From a virus, in the IMG/VR virus record IMGVR_UViG_3300003322_000968, positions 1-64,000 of that record: a stretch of 64,000 bases of DNA; one strand, given 5' to 3'. Below are positions 3,900 through 60,173 of this stretch, in pieces. A program made the translations under genes and the position numbers. Each line of letters starts with the position of its first letter. Within the stretch, counting starts at the first letter, position 1. The notes below the pieces were generated by a model that worked only from the letters and a program-made list of their open reading frames with translations, ran no database searches and was not told the DNA's origin.

Positions 3900-4166
3900 T
3901 CAGAATAATTTTCCATCCATGTATTTCTGTTCTACTTCATAAGGATTTGCAATGTATTGCGCAAGCAGGCTGATTAGCTGGCTTGCTTGTTCAATTGCAA
4001 TTGTTTGGCATCCGACCTCGACAAAAAAGCCTTTGTCAAGCTGCCTAATAGTTAGTTGTCGCATTTTGAAACTTAGCGGTGCGGCTCCGTGTTCGCTTAT
4101 CATTCTATTGGCCTGTTCTCTTGTGGCTGGTTGTTCATGTCCAGGCATCGGCGCTTGTGTATTCAT
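3900..4166 (-). CDS. Hypothetical protein
   Basis: 88-aa ORF in the operon; resembles its neighbour 4184-4399. Confidence 0.6.
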   Translation of the reverse strand: MNTQAPMPGHEQPATREQANRMISEHGAAPLSFKMRQLTIRQLDKGFFVEVGCQTIAIEQASQLISLLAQYIANPYEVEQKYMDGKLF

Positions 4167-4183
4167 TATATATATTTATTGGG

Positions 4184-4399
4184 TTATAAATTGTCTAAAT
4201 AGCTAAAAAAGGAATTACTGTAAAACTCTTTTTCGAATTCAGTTGGATCTTTAAGAAAACGTTCGGTAAATTTTAACACCTTCTCAAGGGCATGGATTGT
4301 AAAGGACCTTCGACCAATGGCGATTATATAACCCAGTGATCCGTCTTCAATAATAACTTTGCTAATTTCAATATTATTTACTTGGACTTTTGGTGTCAT
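4184..4399 (-). CDS. Hypothetical protein
   Basis: 71-aa ORF overlapping the upstream gene. Confidence 0.55.
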   Translation of the reverse strand: MTPKVQVNNIEISKVIIEDGSLGYIIAIGRRSFTIHALEKVLKFTERFLKDPTEFEKEFYSNSFFSYLDNL

Positions 4400-5208
4400 A
4401 AAAGCTTTACATATTCATTTCTGTAATCAATCATCCAATCGAAATTGTCATCGGGATACATGGTCTGAAATAGATCGAGAATTGATTTAAAATTATCTTC
4501 TGTATATCCAGGCCTTTTCATATGAGCATCTATGATACCAGGCGGTATTGCTTCCGGCCAGCCATCGCGATCAGCACGCCGTGTTGCGAATTGAGTGCCG
4601 GGCGCGGCGCGCAAATGTTCAAATACTAATTCATCGCTTTTTTTAAGTGCATTAAATATGGTTTCTTGGTCTTTGGACCATAAGTTTCCCCTAAAATGTT
4701 CGCATTCTATTGCGCCAAGTAAATCATCAAGCTTTTCCTGAGCAGAAACTCCAAGGGGAATATTCATTACCTCTCGCCAGATTTTGGCAGGCATTCCAAT
4801 GAAACATATTGGGTATTGATTTTCGGGAACCAGATCAGCTCCAGCAACGTGAACATAGCCATCATTGAATTGATTAAAATATCCCCTATTAAAAACCGCC
4901 ATATCAATATCTCCGGTGATTAATACTTCGTCATCCTGGAATAATGGCAATGCGGCACCGTATAAGCGAGAGCATTGGGCGTAGGTGGCTTCTTTGTCTT
5001 TAGGACAATTGTAAACAGCAAATCTATTATTGCCTTGGCTTTGAAAATAATTTCTCATGACTCTACGCCTCCTTTGTCTTACCACATCGCCACAATCATC
5101 TGGTATAAAGCAAACCACATCAATACCCAGCTTATTCCAGGCCCAGGTAGTTATGGGAAGGAAGAAAAGATATTGATTGTCATAGGTTGTGGAGAGAATT
5201 GCAGTCAT
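4396..5208 (-). CDS. GT-A fold glycosyltransferase-like protein
   Basis: LITGDIDM DxD motif and WSKDQ; located in the glycosyltransferase cluster. Confidence 0.55.
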   Translation of the reverse strand: MTAILSTTYDNQYLFFLPITTWAWNKLGIDVVCFIPDDCGDVVRQRRRRVMRNYFQSQGNNRFAVYNCPKDKEATYAQCSRLYGAALPLFQDDEVLITGDIDMAVFNRGYFNQFNDGYVHVAGADLVPENQYPICFIGMPAKIWREVMNIPLGVSAQEKLDDLLGAIECEHFRGNLWSKDQETIFNALKKSDELVFEHLRAAPGTQFATRRADRDGWPEAIPPGIIDAHMKRPGYTEDNFKSILDLFQTMYPDDNFDWMIDYRNEYVKLL

Positions 5209-40610: not shown

Positions 40611-40641
40611 TTTGCTATATTCGTTTAAAATAAACCCATAT

Positions 40642-41754
40642 ATGGCAAACTACAAAATCACATTCCGAGTGCGCTGGGACAAATATAGCGCCGCGCAACA
40701 AGGCTACCCAATTTGGTTAAGGTTTAAAGTGAAGGGGTGTAAAGAAAAGTTTAAGGAAACGGAGCTTTATATACAAAGCCGCGAGCAATGGAGCGGTAAA
40801 GAGGTTAAAAAACACCCCGATGCCCAGAAGATGAACATCCTGCTGGCAAAGAAGAAAATAGAATTGAATGCCCAGCTTATGAACGACAAAATAGCAGACA
40901 TTCCAATAACAGCAAACTCCCATAAGAAGCAGCGCGGCATCCCCAGTTTTTTTGAGTATATCAAAGAGGTTCGCGGCACGAACAGAAAAACCACCAACCT
41001 TATAAATAACATAAAAGAATATTTGGGTTACGAGCCCTCTATCCATGAAATTGACATTGCCTGGCTGCGTAAGTATGAAACTCATTTACGTAAGAAGCTA
41101 AAGTATAAGGATAATTCCATAAATACCATATTCAAGGTATTGCGTCGGGTAACCAACCAAGCCGTATTGGAGAAGCACATCAAAGAGAGGGTGATTGGCA
41201 AGGGGGCCTACCAAATGCCCGCTGCTGGTAAAACCACACCTGTTTTCCTTGTAAAAGAGGAGCGCGCAAGATGGATGAAGGGGCTTGTTGAAAATGAGAT
41301 TGCAAACCCTGTAACCCGGCGAGCGCTTCTGTATTTCATGCTATCTTGCTATAGTGGTTTGCGCCATAGTGATCTGCGTAAATTCAATACAGACAAGCAT
41401 GTGATAGATGATATGATTGTATTGCGAGCCACAAAAACCGGCGAATTAATCTGTTATCCGATAGGCGAATCTTTAAAAACAATCATTGCGCTAATTCGCA
41501 TTTTAGGCCCATTGTGCATGGAATATAAGGTTTATAATGCAGCATTGAAGGATATTGCTAAGCAGTTTGAGACCAAGAAAAATGTCTCGACACACGTAGG
41601 GCGTCATTCATTTGGCCGCTTCATGGCAGAACAAAATGTATCAGAATCAGATTGCGCATATTACATGGGAATTGGCATTAAGGTGGTGCAAATTTATTAT
41701 CATATAACAGGCAAAATTAGAAATGATCGCAATCAGCATTTGCGCGTAGCGTAG
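40642..41754 (+). CDS. int: Tyrosine integrase (Bacteroidota Arm-DNA-binding + SAM-like + catalytic domains)
   Basis: YPIWLR N-terminus; GLRHSD (R), ATKTG (K), HVGRHSF (HxxR), QIYY (Y). Confidence 0.9.
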   Translation: MANYKITFRVRWDKYSAAQQGYPIWLRFKVKGCKEKFKETELYIQSREQWSGKEVKKHPDAQKMNILLAKKKIELNAQLMNDKIADIPITANSHKKQRGIPSFFEYIKEVRGTNRKTTNLINNIKEYLGYEPSIHEIDIAWLRKYETHLRKKLKYKDNSINTIFKVLRRVTNQAVLEKHIKERVIGKGAYQMPAAGKTTPVFLVKEERARWMKGLVENEIANPVTRRALLYFMLSCYSGLRHSDLRKFNTDKHVIDDMIVLRATKTGELICYPIGESLKTIIALIRILGPLCMEYKVYNAALKDIAKQFETKKNVSTHVGRHSFGRFMAEQNVSESDCAYYMGIGIKVVQIYYHITGKIRNDRNQHLRVA

Positions 41755-43680: not shown

Positions 43681-44721
43681 TTAATAACGATAAATAGGCT
43701 TAAGGATTATTTGGCTATCCATGTCAACCTTGACGGTCTCTGATTTCTCTCTTCTTATACGCATATTCCAAGCTTCGATTAAATGCTTAACCTTTGTTGT
43801 TATAGAAACGATGTTAGAGCGATTGCGATTGCGGTTTTTTAGGTGTGAAAATTCTTTCTCAAAATAGCCGCGAACAACTTTGACGGGATCATTAGCTTTG
43901 AGTTCAACGCCGCTTGCAAAGCTATCGAGGAATTGTGCGGCTTCGGCCTTCATGCCAGGCAACTGGCCCAATATATACATCATAAAGGCCCACTGTGGGG
44001 CAGTTAGAAAGTTTTTGCTATCCTTCATCCATCTGGTCTTAGCTCTTGTTAAGTGAGCTACAACTTCAACCATCTGTGATTTCTTATTAACAAAAGCATT
44101 CACCTCATAGTTAGGAACATCTTTATCTCCAATTGAGCCCTTAACCATTGACCTGTTTTGGTATAATAGAATTAGCTTAATTGTTTGGGCGATCTGGCGG
44201 CTGTCATTTGCGAAGTTGCCAATCTTAACCATGTCCTCAGCGTTGCGACGTTCATTCAGATCGATATACGAGAATGCGTCATCATCCAAGCCGGTTACGA
44301 TAATATAATCTACAGAAACGCCGCTTAAGTAAATTGCCCAAAGCTTATGCTGCCCATCGATGAGCTTAAGTTTCTTTGTAATTCGTAGTGTATCACCATT
44401 TCGCTCTTTCCACTTCTTTGATTTCATTTGCTCTACATAGGAATTAATCGCCTTCCAGCGTAATTCTCTATTTTGATCATCATCGTTGAGTGTTAGGAGA
44501 TCAAGGGCGATTTCGGGAGTAATTTTTACATAGAAGGGCTTCTCAGGGTCCGCCCGCTTAATACGTTCTATTATGTCCGTTTGTAGTTTATGCCCTTTTA
44601 ATATATCAAGGTAATCGGGTCTATTTATTTTCATTCGAAAGTTGTTTTGGCTTTTTGGGTTGGCCATTCGTTCAGAAGAGGTGGGATTGCTTCTTGTAGG
44701 GGAGATAACAACATTAGCCAT
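43681..44721 (-). CDS. ParB/Srx-like N-terminal domain protein (DGQHR type)
   Basis: ITPEIA..LL...NR, W..NGD, LIDGQHKLWAI, D....R. Confidence 0.72.
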   Translation of the reverse strand: MANVVISPTRSNPTSSERMANPKSQNNFRMKINRPDYLDILKGHKLQTDIIERIKRADPEKPFYVKITPEIALDLLTLNDDDQNRELRWKAINSYVEQMKSKKWKERNGDTLRITKKLKLIDGQHKLWAIYLSGVSVDYIIVTGLDDDAFSYIDLNERRNAEDMVKIGNFANDSRQIAQTIKLILLYQNRSMVKGSIGDKDVPNYEVNAFVNKKSQMVEVVAHLTRAKTRWMKDSKNFLTAPQWAFMMYILGQLPGMKAEAAQFLDSFASGVELKANDPVKVVRGYFEKEFSHLKNRNRNRSNIVSITTKVKHLIEAWNMRIRREKSETVKVDMDSQIILKPIYRY

Positions 44722-44895
44722 ACGCTGTCAGGGTGTTTAGTTTATTAGTTAATGATTTTAACGTCTCGAATTTAACAGAAATAATTTTATTCAAAAAAAT
44801 TAATTATTAATTTTATTAGCACTGTATTTGTATTAAGAATTGCAGTAATTGGTAGATAACATTAACTAACAATCTAAAAACCCTGACAGCGTATG
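44719..44895. repeat. 36-bp inverted repeat (33/36 identical); each arm ends in a start codon
   Basis: CATTAACTAAYAAWCTAAAMACCCTGACAGCGTATG at 44719-44754 (-) and 44860-44895 (+); third copy at 46125-46160 (+). Confidence 0.85.
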
Positions 44896-45039
44896 AAGCA
44901 CAAGACCAGGCCTAAAGCAGCTAACCCCAAACCTCCGCTCCTTTTGCGACTTATTGATCCTCAGCTAATAACACTAACGGGCAAACATGATCCGGCTATA
45001 AATAATAAAATCAAGAAAATTATTTCACGATCTTCTTAG
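44893..45039 (+). CDS. Small basic protein (48 aa)
   Basis: Manual translation MKHKTRPKAANPKPP...; preceded by the conserved 36-bp leader. Confidence 0.4.
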   Translation: MKHKTRPKAANPKPPLLLRLIDPQLITLTGKHDPAINNKIKKIISRSS

Positions 45040-50764: not shown

Positions 50765-50844
50765 CCGAGCTAATAGCTACTTGCTATTTGGAAGAAAAGC
50801 CCAAGCGGGCAAAAAACACTATATATGAAAAGACAAAATCATTA

Positions 50845-51501
50845 TTAAAAGTATCCCTTAATATAATCCCAAATTCGCTCTTTTATAGCTAACATTCCTT
50901 TATCGGATGGGTGAGAGCATATACCGGGATCAGCATAAAGCCCCTTCGCAGTATTTGTTTCATCTTTTTGTAAATCAGAATTTAAAATGAAAGCATATTT
51001 TTCCCGGTAAGCCCACTTTCTTATTTCCATATTAAGTGCTTTATTCCAAAATCCATCTACAATTACAACAACAGCATTTGAGGTGTTAAGGTAATTTATC
51101 AACCTTTCGTAATATTCAATGAAATCAATAGCTCCTTCTGGTACATTCTCAGATATTCGGAAAATATACAAATCAGCTCCTTTTAATAAATCCAATTGCT
51201 GAAGATCATAGGTTTTAAATTCTCTTTCAAATGCTGCTATGTTTTTAAACTCAATTGATGTACCGGGGGATTTGTCTTTGATGCTTTTAATCAGTAGATG
51301 AACAAAATCTGAATCTAAAGCGGAAGCTGCCATTCCCCAATCATGTTCCCATCCAATAGAAGGTAGCGGAGCATGTTGTACAATACTGTTACCTAAGATT
51401 ACTACCTTTTGAATTTTCCCAACCTTAGCATTGATTATAGGATTGGGTTGATTACAGGCAAAAAGATATAATGTAAAGATTAGTAAGCTAATGCGGCGCA
51501 T
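50845..51501 (-). CDS. SGNH/GDSL hydrolase lipoprotein (moron)
   Basis: Lipobox LFAC, ILGNSI block I, EN block III, HPSDKG block V. Confidence 0.82.
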   Translation of the reverse strand: MRRISLLIFTLYLFACNQPNPIINAKVGKIQKVVILGNSIVQHAPLPSIGWEHDWGMAASALDSDFVHLLIKSIKDKSPGTSIEFKNIAAFEREFKTYDLQQLDLLKGADLYIFRISENVPEGAIDFIEYYERLINYLNTSNAVVVIVDGFWNKALNMEIRKWAYREKYAFILNSDLQKDETNTAKGLYADPGICSHPSDKGMLAIKERIWDYIKGYF

Positions 51502-56943: not shown

Positions 56944-57000
56944 GATATGAGTGTTTATAAAACAAAACCCCCATACAACTAAATGCATGGGGGTTAATAT

Positions 57001-57207
57001 TTAAAAATCCGGGGTATGTTCAACCTGTTCCCCGTTTGCTTTTTCACATAAGTGAACACTTACCATGTGCTCCTTACTCTTTTTGGGCTTAAAGTAGGCA
57101 ATAGCTTTCTGTTTTGCTTCATATAAATCATTAGCCCAAATGTCGGTTTCTTTGTCATTGTAAAATGCCTTATAGCCATTTAGGCCATTTGTTTTATTGT
57201 TTTCCAT
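57001..57207 (-). CDS. Array gene: conserved small phage early protein
   Basis: NGYKAFYN.K...A..LYEAKQKA...VHLCEK.NGEQV.H. Confidence 0.7.
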   Translation of the reverse strand: MENNKTNGLNGYKAFYNDKETDIWANDLYEAKQKAIAYFKPKKSKEHMVSVHLCEKANGEQVEHTPDF

Positions 57208-57260
57208 TGTAAAGTGTTTTAATTAAAAATGCCCGACTAATTAAAGTCAGGCATTGGTAA

Positions 57261-57338
57261 TTAATGAGTACGTATAAATTGCGCGACAATGTTTGCCAGC
57301 ACAACAAAGGAGCTGATCAAATAATTTACATATTTCAT
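57261..57338 (-). CDS. Array gene: 25-aa hydrophobic peptide
   Basis: MKYVNYLISSFVVLANIVAQFIRTH*, with its own hairpin unit. Confidence 0.5.
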   Translation of the reverse strand: MKYVNYLISSFVVLANIVAQFIRTH

Positions 57339-57382
57339 ATCGTTAACAAGTTTATATAATAACAAAACCCGCATTAAGCGGG

Positions 57383-57820
57383 TTAATCTTCAATTACGTG
57401 ACCATCTAAATTTAAAAGGAACAGGTGAATGTCTAAATCATTTCCCCTGAATATTTTACAACACTCATTCATTAAAAAGTCCATATGATGCGCATCCTGC
57501 TCATGTATTCCTTTTAAACAATCTGCCGCGCTATCGTCCGGGTTGTAAAGCTCACCGTTATTATATAACTCGGTCAGATACGTTTTGGCCTGTTCTAATG
57601 TTGTAATACCCTCAGGTAGTGTTGTTTTAATAAGTCGGGGCGCTGGCTTTTTGAGTTCCGTTAGTTTCCTTTTAGCAAGGGCCGTAACCACTTGTATTAT
57701 GTCGCATATTTCAAGGTCATTTAATTGCGCAGCGGCAGCAACTTCATTTGCCGCTTTAGCAATTGCAGCCGCTTTATTTATTTCAGCCAACTGTTCCGGC
57801 GTTAAATCTTTGTATTGCAT
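57383..57820 (-). CDS. Array gene: hypothetical protein
   Basis: 145 aa; YNPDDSAAD motif. Confidence 0.65.
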   Translation of the reverse strand: MQYKDLTPEQLAEINKAAAIAKAANEVAAAAQLNDLEICDIIQVVTALAKRKLTELKKPAPRLIKTTLPEGITTLEQAKTYLTELYNNGELYNPDDSAADCLKGIHEQDAHHMDFLMNECCKIFRGNDLDIHLFLLNLDGHVIED

Positions 57821-57870
57821 AAGAGTGTTTTATAAATAAAAAAACCCGCTTTAATGCGGGTTAATTGCTT

Positions 57871-57972
57871 TTAAAATAACAGAATCAATGTCATAATTAC
57901 CAACAAGGGAATAAGAGAACAATAAAGGACTATAAGCAACCGTGAATAGCATTCAGCAAATAATTGTTTCAT
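57871..57972 (-). CDS. Array gene: 33-aa membrane peptide (first gene of the array)
   Basis: MKQLFAECYSRLLIVLYCSLIPLLVIMTLILLF*. Confidence 0.55.
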   Translation of the reverse strand: MKQLFAECYSRLLIVLYCSLIPLLVIMTLILLF

Positions 57973-58021
57973 ACAAGTGTTTATAAAACAAAACCCCCGA
58001 ATACATTGCTGCAAACGGGGG

Positions 58022-58543
58022 CTTAAAACACTAGAGCAGGCAAAAGCCTGCCAAAAAACACTATAATTAACTAATAACAAACTTCTTATGGTTATAGCGT
58101 GTTATCTTCACAGCGTAACAGCGCTATAATAATTATATTGCTCGTTAGTCATTCAAATACAATCTCATTTAACCTAACTATTCAGCAAATGCATCTTACT
58201 GCAATGCTATTGTTCCACACAAATAAATGAGTATTGTAACCCGATTGCTATAATGTATAATTGAGCCATTATAGCGCGTAATGTATTACGCTTGCGCAGC
58301 AGTAGCGGTCAGTAGAGTGGAAACTCATTGGAGAGGCAATATTGCTATTGTCCCCGTCGCGCCCCTGGTAGGTGTTTATTGACCTGGATTTACAGGTGCT
58401 AGCCCATTACGGGCAACTAGCTGGCCAGCACTAACAAAATGTTAGCTTATTTACTGGCAATCGGTAATTAGAGCAATCCCTGGCTTGATCTATGTCAAAT
58501 AGCTAATTGTTATAGCAAGGTTTGAGCGCCTTTGCTGTAACAA
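58022..58543 (-). ncRNA. Candidate large structured leader / ncRNA
   Basis: No credible ORF; at least 8 helices including a multibranch domain closed by CCGATT(58241)/AATCGG(58464). Confidence 0.55.
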
Positions 58544-58546
58544 CAA

Positions 58547-58592
58547 TGCTAAGATAGTACATTTGTTACAATTGCAATACATTTGTAACAAA
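58547..58592 (-). promoter_or_regulatory. Promoter for the leader/array with an overlapping operator-like inverted repeat
   Basis: Minus-strand TTG-N18-TATCTTAGCA; TTTGTTACAA (58562)/TTGTAACAAA (58583) inverted repeat. Confidence 0.55.
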
Positions 58593-58641
58593 ATAAAATG
58601 TTAAATAGGTAAATAGTTGTAGTGAAGGTAGTTATAAAGCG

Positions 58642-59004
58642 TTATTGATCTGCATTAAAACCATTGCCATATTTACTGATCTTTATTTTCACAAGATGGT
58701 CAATTGTGTAATTAAATTGCTCTATAGTTTTAATTCCGTCAGTAGTTATTGCATACACTACATTTAATCCAACTTGATTGCGGGTTATGTTGTGGTTACC
58801 AACTAACCTGTTTATAGATTGCTGGTAAGAGCGTTTACTGATTACTCCATATTCTAAGCAAATAGTGTCATATAAAGCCCCGTAACTGTAATTGCTGAGC
58901 GGGAATGATAAGCATTGAAGCAGTAAGAGATCGATCTTTGTTGAGCCCCTCATTGCCCTAAGGGCCTGGTTTTGTGCCTGGGTGTATAGTGTACCAAAAT
59001 ACAT
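58642..59004 (-). CDS. Winged-helix (MarR/PadR-like) DNA-binding protein
   Basis: SYQQSINRLVGNHNITR.....VYAITTDG. Confidence 0.55.
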   Translation of the reverse strand: MYFGTLYTQAQNQALRAMRGSTKIDLLLLQCLSFPLSNYSYGALYDTICLEYGVISKRSYQQSINRLVGNHNITRNQVGLNVVYAITTDGIKTIEQFNYTIDHLVKIKISKYGNGFNADQ

Positions 59005-59306
59005 AGGTGATTAAGTAAATGATCGTTCACTTATGAGGGCGATTATTGTTCGTTATCGGATGTAACCAATCGGTTACGCATTATGCAATTGCCTGGTTTT
59101 CAATGGGGTGGGGGAGGGGCTAAAATTCTATTTAACATAAGATATATTATGACTTTGATTGTGAGTTTCGCCAGCTTTTGCGCAATATACAATATTATGG
59201 CCAAATCGCACCGAAACGGGGCAAATTGGACCCCACCCCATCTGAAAATTCGCGTTTTCCCCGGCAATTGCGGCCCGTATCATAATGTAATTAACACACC
59301 CTCTCG

Positions 59307-59843
59307 TCATTCTCCCTTGTTTTTAGGATATAACATATTCCAGATCAGCATCGCTCCCTGTCTTACTCCATTAGCCTGCCCTAATTTGTAGGGATCCTCC
59401 GTTTCGCTATTCTCAAATATAATTGTTTTAATCCATAGCTCTATATGTTCATTATACGCTGTCCAGTCCTGTACCTGAGCCTTGCTGGTTGGCGAATATA
59501 CTCGCCCAGGATTGATGCGCACCAGGTCTTTTACGATTTCATAAACTATTACATCTGCAGAATAGTTACTTGGCAGTTTTTTCTGTAGTAATACTAGCAA
59601 TGATTGTTTAAACTCCTTTGTTATATTACGCTTAGCGTCTGTCGAAAATAGTTGTGATATATATGTTTTGAGCCTAATTCGGTTTTTGTCATACACTTCC
59701 CTTGCAGTAGCAAGTGTATAATATTGAGAGTCAGGATCGTTTAGTAATTGATCTACCAAATCAGATTGGCTTTCAAATAGGGGGCCATTGCCAAAATTAT
59801 ACTCAAATAGTACAGCAAAAGCATTTGTTGGAAACTCGGTCAT
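59307..59843 (-). CDS. Hypothetical protein
   Basis: 178 aa; AAAACCCATATATG start context. Confidence 0.6.
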   Translation of the reverse strand: MTEFPTNAFAVLFEYNFGNGPLFESQSDLVDQLLNDPDSQYYTLATAREVYDKNRIRLKTYISQLFSTDAKRNITKEFKQSLLVLLQKKLPSNYSADVIVYEIVKDLVRINPGRVYSPTSKAQVQDWTAYNEHIELWIKTIIFENSETEDPYKLGQANGVRQGAMLIWNMLYPKNKGE

Positions 59844-59852
59844 ATATGGGTT

Positions 59853-60173
59853 TTATTGTAACAGGTCTCTTATATCAATAATTTCTGGTTTTACCCACTC
59901 GTCTTCAAATTGTCTTAATTGCCGGTCTTGGTTACACTTAAAACAGGCTAACACTTTAGTCTTTCTGCGCTCCAGGTTACGCCTTAGATCTACTTTGCTA
60001 TACAAGTGATCTGTTGTAGCCATAGTAGGAAATGGCTTGTAGTCACTCTGATTTACGCCTTTAGGCGGTGGTACAGTTTTAACCCCGCACCAATGACAAC
60101 GAAAACCAACTTTGTAGGCATGTCTTTTCCGCCATCTGGCATTGTTTCTTGTATCAACCCTGTATTTAGCCAT
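59853..60173 (-). CDS. Small HNH endonuclease
   Basis: CHWCG...ATTDHL...VLACFKCN. Confidence 0.8.
   Translation of the reverse strand: MAKYRVDTRNNARWRKRHAYKVGFRCHWCGVKTVPPPKGVNQSDYKPFPTMATTDHLYSKVDLRRNLERRKTKVLACFKCNQDRQLRQFEDEWVKPEIIDIRDLLQ

Follow-up and report, generated by a model that had tools for sequence, protein, structure and literature searches.

A structured non-coding element at the head of a terminator-punctuated gene array in a putative Bacteroidota phage

At the head of an array of small genes and terminator-like hairpins, a phage genome carries a structured non-coding element, as supported by folding beyond that of shuffled controls, by natural variation that preserves the structure, and by a position at the boundary of the array. 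We consider it a hairpin-rich element that is selectively maintained and is most likely a minus-strand RNA; its transcription, strand, and ends, together with any effect on read-through, are what we infer. The features on which the following paragraphs draw are collected in Table 1.

Table 1. Coordinates of the predicted structures, candidate signals, and flanking genes
Feature	Position	Strand	Remarks
DUF4364-like gene, upstream	58642-59004	minus	120 aa; Pfam scan
Palindrome of two direct 14-mers	58556-58592		TACATTTGTTACAA and TACATTTGTAACAA, 20 bp apart; operator- or promoter-like
-7-like box of the earlier note	58547-58556	minus	TATCTTAGCA; candidate
Hairpin C	58507-58543	minus	arms 58507-20/58529-43
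Central multibranch domain	58241-58464	minus	GC-richer; fold z -4.09 (minus), -1.69 (plus)
Helix P1	58241-46/58459-64		CCGATT/AATCGG, 6 bp; closes the domain
Hairpin	58424-58458	minus	arms 58424-28/58454-58
Hairpin	58398-58421	minus	
Hairpin	58330-58356	minus	minus-strand GCAA tetraloop
Hairpin	58315-58326		4 bp; loop GGAA (plus) or UUCC (minus); GAAA in the minor allele
Helix	58307-16/58375-84		two G-T pairs
Hairpin	58276-58291	minus	6-7 bp; arms 58276-82/58285-91; compensated in the minor allele
Hairpin	58247-58275	minus	9-bp stem, 11-nt loop; GCTATAATG/CATTATAGC, arms 58247-55/58267-75
Hairpin A	58092-58129	minus	ca. 13 bp, one bulge; AT-rich 3' part
T1	58035-58052	minus	7-bp GC hairpin, interrupted U tail
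T2	57985-58024	minus	CCCCCG/CGGGGG core, ca. 9 bp plus inner stem, then UUUUGUUUU
First array ORF	57871-57972	minus	33 aa, hydrophobic; preceded by the conserved start context

The window, that is, the whole stretch of DNA analyzed (64,000 nucleotides), corresponds to bases 1 to 64000 of a 77,572-bp IMG/VR virus record with a completeness rating of 100%, and near-identical DNA is present in four root-metagenome runs (X1 to X4), all of one study. Compared with cultured phages, mainly those of Flavobacterium and Cellulophaga, the large terminase (TerL) reaches just 27 to 31% identity, and these matches, together with an integrase gene at 40612-41754, point to a temperate phage with a host in the Bacteroidota. 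Nearly every gene between ca. 77.4 and 50.8 kb is on the minus strand. The genes flanking the region are ca. 620 bp apart, the upstream one encoding a DUF4364-like protein, of a family that resembles PadR-type winged-helix regulators.

A contig of run X2 (depth of 6.4, 89% identity over 58583-58638) joins position 58638 straight to 59011, and therefore that relative lacks the gene of the 120-aa DUF4364-like protein and would have its two non-coding gaps side by side. The second of these gaps (59005-59306), also ORF free and located directly upstream of the DUF4364-like gene, contains an imperfect inverted repeat of ca. 35 nt, the arms of which (59086-59121 and 59229-59272) include G runs and C runs, and the fold z of the gap was -3.4 on the minus strand and -2.8 on the plus strand. 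In runs X1 and X2, its summed contig depth exceeded that of the flanks, and parts of it were matched by foreign contigs. It may be a repeat or MITE-like element common to other genomes.

When ORFs of at least 50 aa were considered in six frames, the 561 bp between 58081 and 58641 made up the longest ORF-free gap of the 77.6-kb genome, the next longest being 327 nt. The statement of the earlier note that there is no credible ORF holds, as no frame across this interval reaches 50 aa. Stops are found in all six frames of the region, no remnant reading frame is visible in them, and the recoding of TGA as W (table 4) or of TAG as Q gave no convincing frame, those that were opened needing one to four read-through codons. 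Furthermore, the minor allele described below removes the ATG of the only 33-codon plus-strand frame of the region, and five of its seven changes would alter the corresponding protein. Six-frame stops, alternative-code frames, and allele changes together rule out a protein-coding gene, including a recoded one, as far as sequence can show. The GC content is 0.51 to 0.52 in the core versus ca. 0.30 in the flanks.

Folding energies were compared with those of dinucleotide shuffles (n = 100 for the 571-nt stretch 58022-58592). The z values of this stretch were -4.44 (minus) and -4.14 (plus), with 0 of 100 shuffles as good on either strand, and the comparison with shuffled sequence, which the earlier note had named as a check, came out in favor of structure on both strands. 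The two parts of the region differed in this respect. The GC-richer core (58236-58470) had a z of -4.09 on the minus strand versus -1.69 on the plus strand, significant on the minus strand only, while the AT-rich part (58030-58240) had -4.15 on the plus strand versus -2.79 on the minus strand. In a GC-corrected scan of the genome with 200-nt windows, those of the region lay ca. 2 to 3 standard deviations (sd) under the trend, among the best 15 of ca. 775 and not the most extreme. The strongest fold of the genome on the plus strand (-4.5 sd), which was also the second strongest on the minus strand (-3.8 sd), was that of the 200-nt window starting at 44701, largely inside a 303-nt ORF-free gap (44722-45024) near a ParB-like gene.

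Every helix listed in the earlier note was recovered at its position. Hairpins A and C have a common TTATAGC arm and a similar left flank and, judging from this likeness, may be paralogues. The 7-mer GCTATAA/TTATAGC forms arms of both of them and of hairpin 58247-75, and 5 of its 27 copies in the genome fall within the region (binomial p = 2e-6 before correction). GNRA loops, with just one per strand, showed no strand bias, and a tetraloop receptor sought in the region was not found.

Natural variation was assessed from the contigs of the four root-metagenome runs aligned on positions 57000-60000. A single minor allele was detected, in run X3, as a 116-nt contig with a depth of 5.2 beside the reference allele at a depth of 10.6. 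It has seven differences, all of them transitions, inside 56 nt. Four of these (58277 C>T with 58290 G>A, and 58280 A>G with 58287 T>C) replace two pairs of hairpin 58276-58291 and keep them Watson-Crick, two others (58283 and 58320) sit in hairpin loops, and the number of predicted pairs hit on one side only was zero. The last one (58332 A>G, in hairpin 58330-58356) creates a G-C pair, in place of a G-U pair when read on the minus strand and of an A-C mismatch when read on the plus strand. The probability of obtaining at least two double-hit pairs with at most one single hit by random placement was about 0.0002 to 0.005; for seven sites placed at random, it was 0.003 when they were confined to the 56-nt patch, 0.001 for the 116-nt contig, and 0.0002 for the 235-nt domain. 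By folding energy alone, 27 of 400 random variants with seven transitions each did as well as the allele on the minus strand and 39 of 400 on the plus strand, which is not significant. The clustering of the changes suggests recombination import from a more diverged relative with the hairpin kept, and templated mutation in a DNA palindrome could be an alternative source. The compensating swaps in hairpin 58276-58291 carry no strand information.

Altogether, we favor the minus strand, not strongly, on the grounds of the core z, the change from G-U to G-C at 58332, the orientation of the neighboring genes, and the T1/T2 hairpins at the 3' end. Signs of the plus strand are the two G-U pairs in helix 58307-16/58375-84, the one in hairpin C, where a plus-strand U-G pair is an A-C mismatch on the minus strand, and the z of the 3' part. 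The caveat of the earlier note about G-T pairs is borne out here, since both this helix and hairpin C have G-U pairs on the plus strand only.

The same note had proposed a minus-strand promoter at the head of the region. The motif TTG-N18-TATCTTAGCA is indeed present, but when its -7 box was scored against the Bacteroidota consensus TAnnTTTG, it matched five of the six fixed positions, a score that is frequent by chance. Perfect TAnnTTTG boxes occur nearby on the plus strand only, each 14-mer of the palindrome at 58556-58592 holding one. There is also a full -33/-7 match (TTTG-N17-23-TAnnTTTG) on the plus strand at 58531-58565, one of only six genome-wide, which points rightwards, away from the region and antisense to the DUF4364-like gene. 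Given these perfect boxes and the full match on the opposite strand, a dedicated minus-strand promoter is not demonstrable. A 14-mer inside the palindrome (CATTTGTTACAATT, 58560-58573) is found again at 73683-73696, in the start codon context of gene 73362-73685. Here, a 19-codon ORF (58562-58503) spanning hairpin C would come after this 14-mer.

The position of the region stands out along the genome. Minus-strand terminator-like hairpins between 50 and 64 kb all lie at or below 58052, with 14 to 17 of them downstream of the region and none upstream, and a stricter script found 11 in 50.3-57.9 kb and none in 57.9-77.5 kb. Therefore, the region marks a sharp change in gene organization, and its description in the earlier note as the head of the array is accurate, as the terminator-like hairpins begin exactly there. 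T1 and T2 taken together had a fold z of -4.9, and no terminator was found between the region and the upstream DUF4364-like gene.

Units of the array combine a GC hairpin and a U tract with a conserved context (TTTATAAAACACTTRT) ahead of the ATG. T2 is the first regular unit, followed by the conserved start context, and T1 read on the plus strand resembles a decayed, inverted unit whose 14-mer CAAAAAACACTATA recurs at 50810. An inverted array unit, in which AAAAAACACTATA comes after a hairpin on the plus strand, lies at both ends of the array (50800-50846 and 58036-58067), and a 7-codon ORF follows the copy at 50800. The units at 57807-57848 and 57976-57998 recur in other contigs of the same samples with unrelated flanks, indicating that cassettes shuffle. 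A search with the array-unit motif retrieved one unrelated contig with a single copy, and cis pairing of the UAGUGUUUU motifs with the start region of the first gene was not predicted.

We looked for relatives of the region in Rfam 15, GenBank phages, IMG/VR, JGI metagenomes, GTDB genomes, and the two nearest phage relatives, and no homologue was found in any of them. Given the lack of homologues, there is no covariation across them. A search of Rfam, also named as a check in the earlier note, gave no family at the gathering score and only subthreshold matches up to an E value of 10. At the gathering score, Rfam 15 had no match in the whole window, and this includes ROOL, GOLLD, the C4/CI-type immunity RNAs, and the leader and antiterminator motifs. 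At E values up to 10, the only hits in 58022-58600 were to ACA59, PrrF, Teg49, and, over T1/T2, to terminator-type sRNAs, all far under their gathering scores. Similarly, blastn against GenBank phages gave no match to the region, and scans of IMG/VR with two core 19- to 24-mers and the operator-like repeat gave nothing.

Close relatives of the flanking proteins are absent from IMG/VR, and the 120-aa DUF4364-like protein, carried by three contigs, had its own sequence as the sole match in a set of 5.8 billion proteins. Through TerL we found two phage relatives (77 and 56% identity), both fragments, neither of which matched the region by BLAST or by our covariance model R1. The nearer of them (G001, 77% TerL identity), whose record is 67% complete, has tightly packed genes at the corresponding end, with neither array nor gap, and a 566-nt gap in relative G002 was rejected as an analogue, as it holds a tRNA-Met. 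No prophage relatives were found in 400 genomes sampled from the phylum, and 400 genomes sampled from the order of genome G004 yielded one distant relative (31 to 32% TerL identity), which had no R1 match.

One lead, a 21-mer match to an ORF-free phage region (JGI contigs L012 and L013, with five IMG/VR copies), was rejected as chance; only a 19-nt hairpin is common to both, and the same 19-mer occurs in ca. 10 unrelated coding sequences. The matched stretch (L012, Ga0181355_1000073, positions 3911-4678, identical in five IMG/VR contigs) belongs to an unrelated phage and is an ORF-poor sequence of ca. 770 nt, flanked by an anti-restriction-like gene cluster on one side and RecE/RecT-like genes on the other. 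With several GCAA-capped hairpins and a long hairpin terminator on its minus strand and a fold z of -2.4 for 3915-4545, it may itself be a structured RNA.

Among the possible explanations, a minus-strand RNA is the simplest, since it accounts for the core z as well as for the terminators and the position. RNA polymerase would come in from the DUF4364-like gene, which we propose because there is no terminator in between, or would start locally near 58545-58600. The RNA of ca. 0.5 kb would fold as a series of modules. Hairpin C would come first, then the GC-richer domain of seven hairpins with its closing 6-bp helix, and last the AT-rich 3' domain, to which hairpin A belongs. The tandem T1/T2 would end most transcripts and so give a discrete noncoding RNA, and a fraction reading through would carry the region as the 5' leader of the terminator-punctuated small-gene array. 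The element would thus be a leftward-transcribed string of folded RNA modules serving both as a terminated noncoding RNA and as the array leader, a reading that we advance tentatively and to which we give nearly an even chance. Against it stands that compensation is limited to one hairpin of one allele, and strings of seven hairpins are not typical of ornate RNAs.

Alternatively, the region could be a non-functional spacer of decayed gene cassettes left by shuffling, with hairpins that are relics of unit hairpins. The resemblance of T1 and its flank to a decayed inverted unit, repeated as the same 14-mer and hairpin near 50810 at the array tail, is what would be expected in such a case, as are the array units with different flanks in other contigs of the same samples and the orphan status of the region, which is absent from the available part of the nearest relative. 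A relic would not be expected to fold ca. 4 sd better than shuffles, nor to keep two compensated pairs and no disruptive change in the sole variant seen, and the core has a GC content above that of its flanks with no remnant frame in any frame. On balance, we regard a mere spacer as possible though rather unlikely.

The function suggested in the earlier note was that of an antiterminator RNA acting in cis, with put and EAR as its examples. Such an RNA would be processive, in the manner of these two or of conAn2, and the nascent leader would stay with the polymerase past T1, T2, and ca. 18 downstream hairpin-U-tract sites. The element is placed exactly where the terminator-like hairpins start, its layout and GC-rich core are conAn-like, and with so many terminators in series the distal genes would need either read-through or internal promoters. 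The latter could be provided by the conserved 20- to 25-nt motif before the ATG of each unit, which could hold start signals of its own, and the 5' edge of the region has no demonstrable promoter. Moreover, no Rfam family appeared up to an E value of 10, and the upstream genes gave no hit to ConAn1 (PF17362), NusG/KOW, or any other antiterminator family. Pfam scans of nine upstream proteins at E values up to 1 returned DUF4364 alone, for the adjacent gene, with no PF17362, and NusG/KOW and other antiterminator families were likewise absent from the hits of the neighboring proteins. No N-like factor was found either, although N-like proteins are too small and diverse for exclusion; on the minus strand, the loop sequence of hairpin C, CGCUCAAA, bears a loose likeness to boxA. 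Two terminators at the element's own end fit a terminated noncoding RNA at least as well as an antiterminator. Since nothing beyond position speaks in its favor, we consider antitermination unlikely. Its most specific form, in which the RNA, possibly with the DUF4364-like protein, would make the host polymerase resist ca. 18 intrinsic terminators by means unrelated to put, EAR, or conAn2, we judge improbable. To our knowledge, no processive antitermination RNA has been described in Bacteroidota, and this would be the first in the phylum.

It is also improbable, in our opinion, that the element acts at the level of DNA, either through protein-binding sites or through hairpins of single-stranded DNA, for example at an origin, at a recombination or partition site, or in a non-autonomous element of the IS200/IS605 type with similar end hairpins. 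The enrichment of the 7-mer in the arms of hairpins A, C, and 58247-75 would suit such a role, several helices favor the plus strand, and compensated palindrome arms fit DNA hairpins equally well. However, the half-site spacing of 15, 17, and 24 nt varies in a way unusual for a dimeric DNA binder, and there is no second copy of the element in the genome. A replication origin has no support, as there is no GC-skew change and there are neither iterons nor adjoining replication genes. An IS200/IS605-type non-autonomous element (PATE) is not supported either; hairpins A and C are alike, but the element is single copy, no Y1 transposase was detected among the proteins scanned, and no foreign junction was reported inside 58022-58582 in the four metagenome runs, an absence of report that proves nothing by itself.

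Coming back to the minus-strand RNA, the element would join the very few long structured noncoding RNAs known in Bacteroidota phages; the transcription signals of this phylum are unlike those of the model systems. Its position would let it control access to the array, in which small accessory genes are shuffled. If it were an antiterminator, a rare RNA-based mechanism would be extended to a new phylum. We regard it as a real and unusual orphan locus with modest evolutionary support, from one hairpin, the value of which is that of a well-defined candidate and not of a finding in itself.

The leader RNAs to which the region may be compared differ in size and conservation. The put RNA is ca. 70 nt and EAR is ca. 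120 nt, each with defined conserved stems. Like the region, HK022 put (PMC9378689) and Bacillus EAR occupy a leader position before the terminators of an early or long operon, where they act in cis. Unlike them, the region has ca. 500 nt, gave no match to an Rfam family, and ends in two terminators of its own. For the antitermination hypothesis, the best analogue in terms of layout is neither of these but conAn2 of pLS20. In the conjugative plasmids of this type, conAn is a bipartite antitermination system made up of the conAn1 protein and the conAn2 RNA, and conAn2 regions are intergenic stretches of 260 to 600 bp with just 30 to 40% sequence identity among themselves (PMC8191782). Given this low identity, the orphan status of our region is no disqualification. 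Both have a small gene followed by a poorly conserved intergenic stretch with a GC-rich part and stem-loops and then by a long operon rich in terminators, and the 561-bp gap falls within the conAn2 size range, a likeness that is architectural only. The differences are the ConAn1 (PF17362) protein, which has no homologue here, and the setting, Gram-positive plasmids versus a Bacteroidota-type phage.

Lambdoid prophages have leader noncoding RNA arrays, such as the DicF precursor of the Qin dicBF operon. These are ORF-free stretches of 450 to 800 nt located after a regulator gene in an early operon, with a chain of folded modules ending in a terminator hairpin. The region would differ from them in that the lambdoid modules are conserved across many enterobacterial phages, some of them being in Rfam, while it has neither relatives nor an Rfam match. 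As for the array itself and not its leader, the promoter/stem-loop (PeSL) cassettes of T4-type phages (PMC2839356, PMC4122927) have a similar design, with small accessory genes flanked by a conserved hairpin and motif. The motif, the host, and the phage type are different, and the array motif is only a candidate holder of a promoter. The recurrence of array units with other flanks in co-occurring phages is what would be expected from modular shuffling of the PeSL kind.
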